IMG/VR virus record: IMGVR_UViG_2541047928_000016
DNA length: 35,398 bases
Reading direction: 5' to 3' (one strand)
Origin: a virus
Taxonomy: Duplodnaviria > Heunggongvirae > Uroviricota > Caudoviricetes
Made by a program: the position numbers and the translations under genes. This document shows, piece after piece, positions 26,969 through 29,954 of this stretch; position 1 is the first letter of the stretch; each line of letters begins with the position of its first letter. The notes beneath the pieces were generated by a model that saw only the letters and a program-made list of their open reading frames with translations, was not told the DNA's origin and searched no databases.

Positions 26969-27470
26969 AATTCCATCCAGCTTTTTGTTGGTATTGCTGT
27001 CGATACGCAAGTTTGAAAGCAATTGCTTTTTCTATAAGTTCGTCAGTTTCACGATCCACTACGGCAGGATCAGCAAAAAGCAGTCCGGACTCCACCACAT
27101 CGCCATATTCTTTGTTTAACCCGGCGATCATGTACGTGATGCTTTTTCCGTCATTAATTTCACGATACAACCTGAAATCATTAATCCGAATAGCCTCCAT
27201 AATTGCAGGCACTAGCGCCGTGAACTTTTCACGCTTATCCCTGGTGTCGATAGCCTTCCAGCGTTCGAATATCTTCACTCGATTAACGCCAAGTGCTCGC
27301 TGATCAACCGCGCCACCTTCATCTGTGACACGCTGAACATCGATGTTCGGGCGCTCTTTCAAAGCCCAGAATGCTTCAGTGATTAATATCGTCGCCTGCT
27401 CCTGTGTCATTCCTGGTCGACATATCCAGGCATCCAGAGCCTCACGAGCCTGTTCAGGAGTGATTTTCAT
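26949..27470 (-). CDS. Hypothetical protein (173 aa) in the cII position between the cro-like gene and the replication initiator
   Basis: ATG at 27468-27470; MKITPEQAREALDAWICRPGMTQEQATILITEAFWALKERPNIDVQRVTDEGGAVDQRALGVNRVKIFERWKAIDTRDKREKF...; no family recognised. Confidence 0.6.
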   Translation of the reverse strand: MKITPEQAREALDAWICRPGMTQEQATILITEAFWALKERPNIDVQRVTDEGGAVDQRALGVNRVKIFERWKAIDTRDKREKFTALVPAIMEAIRINDFRLYREINDGKSITYMIAGLNKEYGDVVESGLLFADPAVVDRETDELIEKAIAFKLAYRQQYQQKAGWNYEPSFC

Positions 27471-27681
27471 TGTTCAACCGCCCCGCCCGCTTCGTCTTAC
27501 GATATTCGTCATAAACCTTGGGATCATACAGAAGCTCGCCGCCAGATGCCTCCTGTAGACGCATCGCGCGACCTTCAGGAACCAGCTCTTGCCATTGAGA
27601 AACAGCAGATGGGTCAACGCCAGCAGCTTTCGCTACTTTGGCTTTCGTACCGTAAAAATTAATTACGTCTGATTTAAACAT
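27454..27681 (-). CDS. dicC: Cro-like repressor, DicC-like (75 aa from ATG 27681)
   Basis: C-terminal ...ELVPEGRAMRLQEASGGELLYDPKVYDEYRKTKRAGRLNNENHS closely resembles recalled K-12 DicC; divergent from dicA. Confidence 0.75.
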   Translation of the reverse strand: MFKSDVINFYGTKAKVAKAAGVDPSAVSQWQELVPEGRAMRLQEASGGELLYDPKVYDEYRKTKRAGRLNNENHS

Positions 27682-27758: not shown

Positions 27759-28166
27759 ATGAACGAGAAAACTTTAGGTCAACGCATTAGAGAAAGACGT
27801 AAGCAGGTAGGCTTAAGTCAAAACGGTTTAAGCAAAGCTGCTGGCGTATCTGGCTCATCAATTTCATTATGGGAAAGTGACCATACAGCCCCGCGCGGGC
27901 AAAATTTGCATCGCCTCGCCGAGGTATTGCAATGTTCACCAACTTGGATACTGTTTGGCGACGAGGACAAAACACCAGCTCCCCCTGTTTCACTCGATAG
28001 TGCCTTAGACTTATCGGAAGATGAGTTAGAGATGCTGCGTTTGTATCGCGCACTTCCTAAATCAGAGCAACAAGCACAACTCAGCGAACTCCGCGCCCGC
28101 GTTGAGAATTTTAATCGCCTGTTCACCGAGCTATTAGAGGCTCGCAAACGCAACAAGCATCAATAA
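27759..28166 (+). CDS. dicA: CI-type repressor with XRE-family HTH, DicA-like (135 aa)
   Basis: From ATG 27759: MNEKTLGQRIRERRKQVGLSQNGLSKAAGVSGSSISLWESDHTAPRGQNLHRLAEVLQCSPTWILFGDEDK...; HTH motif; 135 aa. Confidence 0.85.
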   Translation: MNEKTLGQRIRERRKQVGLSQNGLSKAAGVSGSSISLWESDHTAPRGQNLHRLAEVLQCSPTWILFGDEDKTPAPPVSLDSALDLSEDELEMLRLYRALPKSEQQAQLSELRARVENFNRLFTELLEARKRNKHQ

Positions 28167-28358
28167 TCATCCCTTCACAAAATTTTAAAGCCTTACATTT
28201 CAATGTATTGGCTTTATCTTGCGCCAACACTTGAGTTTTCTCATCAAAAAAACTTGACGAAAAATAATGAGAAAACTAAATTACCTCCATCAAGACACCG
28301 CACGGTGTTCTCAGCAAACAGTTCCGCTACCCCGGCGTTAAGGGGAAATGAGGTCAGC

Positions 28359-28514
28359 ATGGATACTATCGATCTTGGCAACAGCGAATCTCTGGTATGT
28401 GGCGTGTTCCCCAACCAGGACGGCACGTTCACCGCGATGACGTATACCAAAAGCAAAACGTTTAAAACCGAAAATGGTGCCCGTCGCTGGCTGGAAAGAA
28501 ACTCAGGTGAGTGA
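28359..28514 (+). CDS. ydfA: Small protein YdfA-like (51 aa)
   Basis: MDTIDLGNSESLVCGVFPNQDGTFTAMTYTKSKTFKTENGARRWLERNSGE; GAGG RBS; first gene of the dicB operon. Confidence 0.7.
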   Translation: MDTIDLGNSESLVCGVFPNQDGTFTAMTYTKSKTFKTENGARRWLERNSGE

Positions 28515-28515
28515 T

Positions 28516-29091
28516 ATGGATTTCGACACAATCATGGAAAAGGCTTACGAAGAATACTTCGAAGGCCTTGCCGAAGGCGAAGAAGCTCTCAGCTTCAGTG
28601 AGTTTAAACAGGCACTCAGAATAAGAATGTGCTCTCACAATGACGCGGAGCACAAATATGAGAAGCAAAATCAGACCGCAGAAAATTTTGTTCTGGAACC
28701 CGGAGAAACGCTTTTCAAAATTCCCGTTACGTGCCCCATTTGCGGTTTTACATCAGAAGAACTTGACGACTCCTGTAACAATCAGGAAACAACCAAGTAT
28801 GTCGAAGATGATACCGAGTGCGCACGAAGAACGATTATATCCACGAGTCCAAACTCCAGGACCAATAAATCTCACTATGAGAGGGTGATTAATCCACTCC
28901 CCCAAACCAATAAAAAAGATGCCGGAGGACAAAAAACCCAATGGAACAACGGGATATCTGTCAAAAAAAGACGTTCCATTAAAGACAAACAACGCAGCGC
29001 CAACAACTGTAAGAGCTTTATACCAGTAATCAATTTTCATGTTCTTAAGCGGATTTATTGGTGGTTGCGACATTGCTTAATGAATCCTTAA
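28516..29091 (+). CDS. Hypothetical protein (191 aa), YdfB-like N-terminus; 3' extent uncertain
   Basis: ATG 28516 one nt after ydfA stop; MDFDTIMEKAYEEYFEGLAEGEEALSFSEFKQALRIRMCSHN...; a 106-aa antisense ORF (28753-29073) with three predicted TM helices overlaps it, so one of the two may be spurious. Confidence 0.4.
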   Translation: MDFDTIMEKAYEEYFEGLAEGEEALSFSEFKQALRIRMCSHNDAEHKYEKQNQTAENFVLEPGETLFKIPVTCPICGFTSEELDDSCNNQETTKYVEDDTECARRTIISTSPNSRTNKSHYERVINPLPQTNKKDAGGQKTQWNNGISVKKRRSIKDKQRSANNCKSFIPVINFHVLKRIYWWLRHCLMNP

Positions 29092-29350
29092 AACTGTGGT
29101 GATTTTAAGGATACCACCTCGCCTGACGTGGTTAAAAGCAGGCACACAACACGAAAGCGCACGGCGAAGTTCGTCTCACTGTACGGTGTCGTTAAATTTA
29201 ATTCGACCGTGCGCTTCCGGTTGTGGCAACCCGCAAAATGGCGCGGCGGTAAGTATGGCGGGGTTATTCCTTCCCCGTTGAGGACACCGGGTTGTCAGGT
29301 TGACCATACGCTTAAGTGACAACCCCGCTGCAACGCCCTCTGTTATCAAT

Positions 29351-29408
29351 TTTCTGGTGACGTTTGGCGGTATCAGTTTTACTCCGTGACTGCTCTGCCG
29401 CCCTTTTT
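29351..29408 (+). ncRNA. dicF: DicF small RNA (ftsZ/manX-targeting antisense sRNA) with terminator hairpin and U-tract
   Basis: tttctggtgacgtttggcggtatcagttttactccgtgactgctctgccgcccttttt matches my recall of K-12 DicF; 170 nt upstream of dicB. Confidence 0.8.
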
Positions 29409-29577
29409 AAAGTGAATTTTGTGATGCGGTGAATACGGCTAAGCGCACGCGGAACAGTTAAAACCAAAAACAGTGTTATGGGTGGATTCTCTGTATCCGA
29501 CGTTAATTGTTAACTGGTTAACGTCACCTGGAGGCACCAGGCACTGCATCACAAAATTCATTGTTGAGGACGCGATA

Positions 29578-29766
29578 ATGAAAACGTTATTACCAAACGT
29601 TAATACGTCTGAAGGTTGTTTTGAAATTGGTGTCACTATCAGTAACCCTGTATTTACTGAAGATGCCATTAACAAGAGAAAACAAGAACGGGAGCTATTA
29701 AATAAAATATGCATTGTTTCAATGCTGGCTCGTTTACGTCTGATGCCAAAAGGATGTGCACAATGA
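29578..29766 (+). CDS. dicB: Cell division inhibitor DicB (62 aa)
   Basis: MKTLLPNVNTSEGCFEIGVTISNPVFTEDAINKRKQERELLNKICIVSMLARLRLMPKGCAQ; GAGGA RBS. Confidence 0.85.
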   Translation: MKTLLPNVNTSEGCFEIGVTISNPVFTEDAINKRKQERELLNKICIVSMLARLRLMPKGCAQ

Positions 29767-29954
29767 ATTCAGCATTTGCGCTTGTTCTGACAGTTTTTCT
29801 TGTTTCCGGAGTGCCAGTTGATATTGCAGTCAGTGTTCACAGGACAATGCAGGAGTGTATGACTGCAGCAACCGAACAGAAAATTCCCGGTAACTGTTAC
29901 CCGGTCGATAAAGTTATTCACCAGGATAATATCGAAATCCCGGCAGGTCTTTAA
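29763..29954 (+). CDS. ydfD: Small membrane protein YdfD-like (63 aa), reported lysis protein
   Basis: MNSAFALVLTVFLVSGVPVDIAVSVHRTMQECMTAATEQKIPGNCYPVDKVIHQDNIEIPAGL; ATGA overlap with dicB stop; N-terminal TM helix. Confidence 0.8.
   Translation: MNSAFALVLTVFLVSGVPVDIAVSVHRTMQECMTAATEQKIPGNCYPVDKVIHQDNIEIPAGL

Follow-up and report, generated by a model that had tools for sequence, protein, structure and literature searches.

How many genes lie between ydfA and dicF in the dicB operon of a lambdoid prophage, and can both strands of the same DNA be coding there? This question is raised by a stretch of 35,398 nucleotides from a virus of the Caudoviricetes (IMG/VR virus record IMGVR_UViG_2541047928_000016), hereafter the window, which holds the immunity and early-left region of a Qin/Rac-type lambdoid prophage. 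The original prediction, made from the letters of this DNA, had set a 191-residue sense open reading frame (ORF) with a YdfB-like N-terminus in competition with a 106-residue antisense ORF, and had added a basic 63-residue ORF initiated at GTG just before dicF as a further gene candidate. All three are present in the list of ORFs where they had been placed. As described below, the antisense ORF is a real gene, the 63-residue ORF is part of a folded RNA leader, and comparison of related sequences suggests that the sense ORF and the antisense gene are probably both real and form an unusual dual-coding cassette. Rather than competing, the two frames would both be maintained by selection. The reading that we favour as a whole, with moderate confidence, is a mobile two-gene cassette at 28617–29133 inside the early (dicB/PL-like) operon.

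Annotation of bacteria and their phages routinely drops long antisense overlaps, and most of the published bacterial cases are young and disputed. The present locus offers a clean comparative case, in which one frame evolves with a ratio of nonsynonymous to synonymous substitution rates (dN/dS) near 0.1 and the other combines a selected N-terminus with avoidance of the three codons that would close it. Either frame can be closed separately by single synonymous substitutions, and the pattern recurs in many phage lineages and at more than one operon position. Two uncharacterised protein families are thereby defined in the immunity regions of lambdoid prophages, a typical site of exclusion and defence genes. 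Moreover, the cassette lies directly upstream of DicF and DicB, so that whatever crosses it controls two known cell-division inhibitors.

A cassette between ydfA and dicF

As reference we used a K-12-type locus with the order ydfA-ydfB-ydfC-dicF-dicB-ydfD (L002). The alignment to K-12-type ydfB and ydfC that had been proposed as a check was carried out with blastn: homology to L002 spans 28288–28616, stops there and resumes at 29134, and therefore 517 bp stand in for the end of ydfB and for ydfC. Instead of an intact ydfB and ydfC between ydfA and dicF, the window has a truncated and fused ydfB and lacks ydfC. The features in question are the following.

28617–29133: cassette of 517 bp substituting the ydfB 3' end and ydfC (blastn against L002)
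28516–29091, plus strand: 191-residue sense ORF, 34 ydfB codons followed in frame by the cassette's operon-sense ORF (ORF list)
28627–29091, plus strand: native operon-sense ("mirror") ORF of the cassette, 154 residues from its own ATG (equivalents elsewhere)
28687–28752, plus strand: conserved N-terminal motif FVLEPGETLFKIPVTCPICGFT of the sense ORF, outside the overlap, with CPICG at 28732–28746 (ratio of nonsynonymous to synonymous differences per site, pN/pS, and synonymous variation)
28753–29073, minus strand: gene for a 106-residue, predicted three-helix membrane protein, wholly nested antisense in the sense ORF (homologues, dN/dS, AlphaFold2)

The first 34 residues of the 191-residue ORF are those of YdfB in the K-12-type locus, and the joint between ydfB and the cassette is at 28616/28617. 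The suggested YdfB-like N-terminus was thus recognised correctly, while the ORF as a whole is no longer YdfB, as an in-frame recombination joint connects it to the cassette ORF. An upstream ATG in the same frame extends the ORF to 205 residues (28474–29091) in the output of the ORF lister, and the 191-residue version matches phrog_35040 across its full length.

The arrangement of the window occurs in 791 of 5426 complete Escherichia coli genomes, counted by a single match over at least 80% of a 1.7-kb query. A near-identical locus (L001; 99.9%) annotated by the Prokaryotic Genome Annotation Pipeline (PGAP) was used as representative. In it, PGAP calls ydfB a truncated pseudogene and leaves the following ~960 bp empty, a layout common to hundreds of complete E. 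coli genomes; other pipelines pick one strand or the other at random.

The interval between ydfB and dicF is a cassette hotspot, with different inserts in L151 (1724–2258), L152 (1835–2596) and L153 (2095–2469), and these inserts often carry a small minus-strand gene, e.g., of 66 residues in L151 and of 61 residues with CxxC motifs in L152. The sense ORF of certain E. coli prophages (P0068, P0113, P0114) has no stop and continues as an in-frame fusion with YdfC of 245–271 residues.

A predicted membrane protein on the antisense strand

The antisense ORF of 106 residues is a real gene, as judged from its homologues, its substitution pattern and its structural model. Full-length homologues of 100–111 residues with 34–58% identity are found in Yersinia, Herminiimonas, Reinekea, Pantoea, Pseudomonas, Shewanella, Arcobacter and metagenomes, and an exhaustive profile search collected 486 clusters (50%-identity representatives). 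The family has the signature DYWYKA...GLGEWINHPL, and its invariant residues span DYWYKA and GEWxNHP (Y16, W17, Y18, K19, A20 ... G56, G58, E59, W60, N62, H63, P64). In a phage collection, tblastn with the 106-residue protein found HannyBb, mEp390 and Bcep176 only.

Comparison between relatives shows strong purifying selection on the encoded protein. The dN/dS of the membrane frame is 0.10–0.16 among E. coli variants and 0.10–0.19 over all computable pairs, and substitutions pile up on third codon positions (e.g., 8/8/22 and 12/8/36 for first, second and third positions). Within the mEp390 clade the dN/dS is 0.11, with differences by codon position of 286/196/742.

The product is predicted to be an inner-membrane protein with three helices and a beta hairpin. 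The AlphaFold2 model has a mean predicted local distance difference test (pLDDT) score of 84.7 and places the helices at residues 17–32, 42–62 and 85–105 and the hairpin at 65–79, in agreement with the three strongly hydrophobic, helix-like segments noticed earlier. Scans with Pfam, PHROG, NCBIfam and PADLOC gave no family assignment; a Pfam scan with E-values up to 1 returned just two sub-threshold chance matches and thus no family, SieB included, and Foldseek of the model against the PDB gave no relative (best E 0.6).

The gene sits within the plus-strand dicB operon, 590 bp from the dicA-like repressor gene, and a like topology is present in L007–L013. In enteric prophages it always adjoins the repressor and is oriented against the early operon.

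Some observations on the family stand apart from these comparisons. A metagenome-assembled genome (MAG) of Arcobacter (NZ_CP182343; L032, L033, L034) contains three copies of the membrane gene at distant chromosomal positions with identical match statistics (38% identity, coordinates and E-value), which suggests carriage on a repeated mobile element. In a metagenome contig (L006, 1309–3513), a Reinekea-type homologue lies two genes 3' of a reverse transcriptase (RVT_1), possibly a defence-island context. Runs of six to seven A (A6–A7) occur inside the overlap at ~28915–28960 of the window, and several frameshifted database variants that break both frames exist (P0058, P0067, P0074, P0077, P0084; one with 39 members), which could be sequencing errors or real inactivation.

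The sense frame inside the overlap

Sense and antisense ORFs are in exact codon-mirror register over the shared 321 bases, a register in which any TTA, CTA or TCA codon of the membrane gene would close the sense frame. The tail of the sense protein, ~107 residues, is encoded by the complement of the membrane gene. In the window the membrane gene contains none of the three. The original prediction had considered that the sense frame might turn out to be interrupted in all relatives and the antisense frame to be unconserved; neither is the case, as practically every phage-borne relative has an uninterrupted sense frame and conservation of the antisense frame is strong.

Mirror-frame stops are absent from the window, from the E. 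coli variants L135 and L136 (membrane-gene synonymous divergence, dS, of 0.39–0.85 between them), from L010–L013, Yersinia, mEp390 and Pantoea, and from at least ten further viral lineages with a GC content of 0.46–0.53. The membrane proteins of these open-mirror lineages have diverged to 58% (L010–L013), 51% (Yersinia) and 38–39% identity (mEp390 and Pantoea). Among operon-embedded lineages with a GC content of 0.41–0.53, the exceptions are L242, the Bcep176 type, whose members are without the sense ORF, and two rare alleles. Family members outside this arrangement (GC 0.28–0.45) have 3–17 mirror stops. Pooled over leucine and serine codons, TTA, CTA or TCA account for 0/110 in the operon-embedded lineages versus 127/320 in low-GC controls, and leucine is encoded by CTT, TTG and CTC instead of TTA, i.e., by AT-rich choices that leave the mirror frame open.

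For lineages with a GC content of 0.41–0.48, the chance of an open mirror frame is ~0.04–0.13 in each lineage if enteric codon usage is assumed, and 1e-4 to 1e-3 if that of the family controls is assumed. Since spurious long ORFs obscure the operon context at high GC, where the mirror frame is open in all viral loci, the statistics were restricted to lineages with a GC content below 0.5. Between lineages the dS of the membrane gene is saturated, and therefore only stop avoidance is informative on the constraint acting on the sense protein. Selection in the overlap appears to act on the openness of the sense frame and not on its amino-acid sequence.

The sense frame outside the overlap

By choice of the start codon, the sense ORF reaches ~30–65 codons past the stop of the membrane gene. 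In this part a motif is kept in fixed register, with CPxCG placed two codons ahead of the mirrored stop and P(G) at position -19; in the window type it reads PGE..F.IP..CPICGF. The CPxCG register is kept in E. coli, Yersinia, a Roseateles prophage-like element and a gammaproteobacterial MAG. Its codons vary at third positions (TGC CCC/CCT/CCA ... TGC/TGT GGT/GGA/GGG), so that CP(I/V)CGF varies synonymously. In the mEp390 clade this position is taken by a second N-terminal type, PGSV.ID....V.L.GW. There the non-overlapping stretch has a dN/dS of 0.16 with differences by codon position of 103/99/230, and in the window's own clade its sense-frame pN/pS is 0.49, the lowest among the six frames. 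The N-terminal part of the sense ORF is thus shown by sequence comparison to be under purifying selection. A coding frame on the membrane-gene strand, downstream of the membrane-gene stop, was considered for the same stretch and rejected, as such frames contain stops in several lineages.

Equivalent sense ORFs of 148–166 residues exist in other prophage lineages and are always co-directional with the early operon. Many phages have the arrangement repressor | cro -> ORF -> cII-like with intervals of 16–40 nt, and in Roseateles the sense ORF follows cro with overlapping stop and start. In L135 it begins exactly at the ydfA ribosome-binding site and ATG, and many copies are preceded by a canonical Shine-Dalgarno sequence (AAAGGGGTAGGT-ATG).

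In P0013-type prophages, the sense ORF is directly followed by a tRNA gene (Gly-CCC or Asn-GTT) of operon-sense orientation (L010 5802–5875; L011 3952–4033; L013 3482–3563).

A zinc ribbon of the FmdB type, the UniRef name of P0115, was also considered for the N-terminal part and rejected, as the alignments contain one conserved CPxCG and no conserved second pair; the Pfam matches are all below threshold.

A proposed switch between lysogeny and derepression

The explanation that accounts best for the whole, and that we consider somewhat better than even, is a two-gene mirror cassette in the early operon, which may act as a switch between lysogeny and derepression. In the lysogen, with the early promoter shut by a DicA-type repressor, expression would come from the membrane-gene strand and provide a function of benefit to the lysogen (a "moron"), most likely superinfection exclusion or abortive infection. 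Upon derepression, early transcription would run convergently through the cassette and silence the membrane-gene mRNA by collision or antisense pairing. Ribosomes on the uninterrupted sense frame would then yield the CPxCG protein and, by their passage, ensure that translation covers the transcript as far as the dicF leader, dicF and dicB. The assignment of the membrane protein to exclusion or abortive infection is a tentative guess held with low confidence; it is made because position and orientation match sieB of lambda and P22, and because both products of the antisense pair beside the repressor of phage Fc02 exclude phages. A further-reaching version, in which the cassette would be an old, conserved mobile dual-coding module whose product is picked by the direction of transcription (leftward for the membrane protein in the lysogen, rightward for the CPxCG/PGSV-domain protein after derepression) and whose sense product or mRNA counteracts the membrane protein, thereby acting as a lysogeny/lysis toggle of an exclusion function, should be regarded as doubtful.

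Several points weigh against two functional products and against the proposed switch. In the overlap the sense frame has a dN/dS of 1.2–1.5. The AlphaFold2 model of the sense protein has a pLDDT of 48.6 and is mostly disordered save for a C-terminal helix, which mirrors the invariant DYWYKA segment. Scans of Pfam, NCBIfam and PADLOC gave no family match for the sense protein, and the PHROG matches of both proteins are families of unknown function that reflect the annotation of phage records. Taken together, substitution ratio, disorder and lack of a family make most of the sense protein look like a by-product. The lone CPxCG implies that no complete zinc site is formed, and N-termini of the mEp390 type are without the cysteines. 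In the window the internal ATG at 28627 has a poor Shine-Dalgarno sequence, and because of this translation would begin at the ydfB ATG, coupled to the ydfA stop. The rare alleles L131 and L161 (IMG/VR contigs) have a single mirror-frame stop each, arising from nonsynonymous changes of the membrane gene (F53L and A85S, respectively), so that the open sense frame is not absolutely invariant, and in L242 the sense ORF stops 17 codons early. The codon counts across lineages are phylogenetically non-independent, and the hosts in the test set differ in codon usage from those in the control set. The support for dual coding is comparative throughout, and exclusion is argued from position alone, with no PADLOC, Pfam or PDB match. 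Finally, the argument from polarity loses weight because a long stretch without translation upstream of dicB is tolerated in the K-12 operon (PMC5069750).

Alternative explanations

The alternative that survives best, which we nevertheless judge to be unlikely, is that the sense frame is kept open purely to cover the transcript with ribosomes against Rho-dependent polarity or mRNA decay, with a polypeptide without a function of its own and the benefit of securing the downstream dicF and dicB or the cII and replication genes. It would explain why the overlap is unconstrained apart from stop avoidance, why the sense ORF is always co-directional with the operon and why it ends 4–12 codons past the membrane-gene start or, in some prophages, enters ydfC in frame. 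However, the selected N-terminal domain, with the dN/dS of 0.16 given above, and a fixed-register CPxCG across distant hosts would be superfluous for coverage, and the K-12 operon has several hundred untranslated nucleotides upstream of dicB (PMC5069750).

Somewhat less probable still is that the antisense gene is the only real one and the sense ORF its shadow, by chance open and in frame with ydfB. The unconstrained amino-acid sequence of the overlap, the predicted disorder and the lack of a family match are what this would lead one to expect; high-GC family members do have chance-open mirror frames, and on the sense strand PGAP calls only the ydfB pseudogene. Yet at a GC content of 0.41–0.48 an open frame is improbable, and it recurs in many synonymously saturated lineages, the part beyond the overlap is conserved as protein, and Shine-Dalgarno sites and tight operon spacing accompany it.

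Type I toxins are small (<60 residues), single-helix, hydrophobic proteins countered by a constitutive antisense RNA antitoxin, and the cassette could be read as a module of similar kind, with the membrane protein as toxin and the convergent early transcript as antisense antitoxin. A small hydrophobic protein antisense to another transcript, an inverted repeat over its Shine-Dalgarno sequence and the presence of toxin-antitoxin modules (HigBA, RelBE) at neighbouring positions in related prophages speak for this, but it is very improbable: with 106 residues, three helices and a hairpin the protein is far above typical type I toxins, an antisense promoter repressed in the lysogen would leave the "toxin" unopposed, and many family members stand alone without an antisense partner.

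That only the sense ORF is real and the antisense ORF its shadow can hardly be credited, for although mEp390 (gene 039) and HannyBb annotate the sense ORF as a coding sequence and not the membrane gene, and most gene callers choose it, so that it is far more frequent in public data (1798 database members versus 141), the antisense family stands alone in many genomes with a stop-filled mirror frame, is under purifying selection within the overlap and has a confident three-helix model.

As a separate observation, HigBA-like or RelBE toxin-antitoxin pairs lie between the DicA-like repressor and the dicB operon in L135 (3139–3803) and L152 (782–1260).

Comparison with known systems

The mirror cassette can be set beside three known situations. 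With the sieB/esc/sas region of P22 and lambda it shares a membrane-protein gene near the immunity region that is oriented against the early operon, in lambda against the early-left operon. SieB aborts the growth of superinfecting phages, and the internal Esc product protects the phage itself. SieB differs in length (~190 versus 106 residues), no sequence relationship to it was detected with Pfam, and no protein-coding ORF is known that covers sieB from the other strand. Because of the orientation of sieB the early transcript is antisense to it, and translation of sieB in P22 is switched by the sas antisense RNA (PMC12197685).

In the B3-like Pseudomonas phage Fc02, olg1 and gene 10 form an antisense pair of which both products are made and both exclude phages (PMC9936078). 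Like the cassette, this opposite-strand overlap lies beside repressor and ner (cro-like) genes, with one gene read in the lysogen and the other being the second gene of the early operon. The proteins and the phage type are different, the evidence is experimental there and evolutionary for the cassette, and the Fc02 overlap is not known as a full codon-mirror nesting.

The third group comprises antisense genes of enterohaemorrhagic E. coli (pop/ompA, ano, asa, laoB, olo), in which a long ORF is likewise embedded antisense in another gene. Annotation pipelines exclude such ORFs (PMC7103648, PMC5960689, PMC9927249), and the olo ORFs are full-length only in Escherichia and Shigella (PMC9927249). 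These cases are taxonomically narrow and based on ribosome profiling and phenotypes, whereas the pair described here spans many phage lineages and host classes and is supported by comparison only.

A literature search retrieved no paper describing the module or either protein family. There are precedents for a moron that runs counter to an early operon and for phage genes that overlap in antisense; the novelty lies in a pair with complete nesting and codon-mirror register, conserved in many phage lineages, with a clear evolutionary signature on both frames.

Signals upstream of the membrane gene

The region preceding the membrane gene contains two candidate control elements.

29108–29135, minus strand: candidate membrane-gene promoter, with -35 TTAACC at 29135–29130, a 16-nt spacer and extended -10 TGgTATCCT at 29116–29108
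29084–29112: perfect 10-nt inverted repeat ATCCTTAAAA / TTTTAAGGAT over the membrane-gene Shine-Dalgarno sequence and the candidate -10 (repeat search)

The element TTAACC-16-TGgTATCCT is conserved in the window, L135, L136, L010 and L007, and it is also found upstream of the unrelated minus-strand gene of 66 residues in L151. From this we infer that it may be a portable promoter of the extended -10 type. A stricter consensus scan for terminators and promoters found nothing convincing at the membrane gene and did not detect this element. An AAGGA Shine-Dalgarno sequence (29089–29085) lies 11 nt before the membrane-gene ATG. The inverted repeat, of which parts are retained in the L007 and L010 lineages, may serve as an operator or form a hairpin that blocks translation.

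The 63-residue frame and the dicF leader

Downstream of the cassette, the two overlapping features that remain to be placed are as follows.

29128–29319, plus strand: ORF of 63 residues with GTG start, judged not to be a gene (ORF list)
29134–29351, plus strand: structured 5' leader of the dicF precursor RNA (folding, stems)

The start of the 63-residue ORF sits at the cassette joint. In the K-12-type loci L002 and L153 its frame contains 2–3 stops and no alternative start, and the DNA from ~29200 to dicF is almost invariant at all codon positions. Its PHROG 8854 match merely mirrors the annotation in some phage records. The segment 29134–29410 folds with a minimum free energy of -104.8 kcal/mol (z = -3.9; 0/200 shuffles as stable), with conserved leader stems at 29152–29164/29207–29219 and 29289–29297/29317–29325. 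In published work (PMC5069750) the stretch is described as long and untranslated, with RNase E and RNase III releasing DicF from it. The stops in K-12-type relatives and its place in the folded leader rule the ORF out as a gene; its DNA belongs to the folded leader of the dicF precursor.

The dicB operon framework

The genes surrounding the cassette are the following.

27454–27681, minus strand: cro/YdaS-like gene
27759–28166, plus strand: DicA-like repressor
28359–28514, plus strand: ydfA (DUF1391), promoter-proximal gene of the dicB operon (Pfam PF07151, E 8.8e-28; PGAP annotation of L001)
29352–29403, plus strand: DicF small RNA (Rfam RF00039, 76.7 bits against a gathering score of 48, E 2.3e-16, full length)
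29578–29766, plus strand: dicB (Pfam PF05358, E 1.9e-40)
29763–29954, plus strand: ydfD (DUF1482) (Pfam PF07358, E 2.2e-25)

Pfam, Rfam and the comparison with L002 bear out the identities of ydfA, DicF, dicB and ydfD and their K-12-like arrangement as originally proposed. The distance from the DicF 3' end to the dicB ATG, put at 170 nt, measures 174 nt and is equal in the window and in L002. Relative to the K-12 Qin dicBF operon, ydfA, the dicF leader, DicF, dicB and ydfD are 97–98% identical with order and spacing kept, the difference being the 517-bp cassette, for which all of ydfC and the 3' end of ydfB have made way. Downstream of ydfD follow exonuclease, excisionase and integrase genes. 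The spacer between dicF and dicB (29401–29610) shows a weak Rfam STnc100 match of 34.6 bits, under the gathering score of 47.

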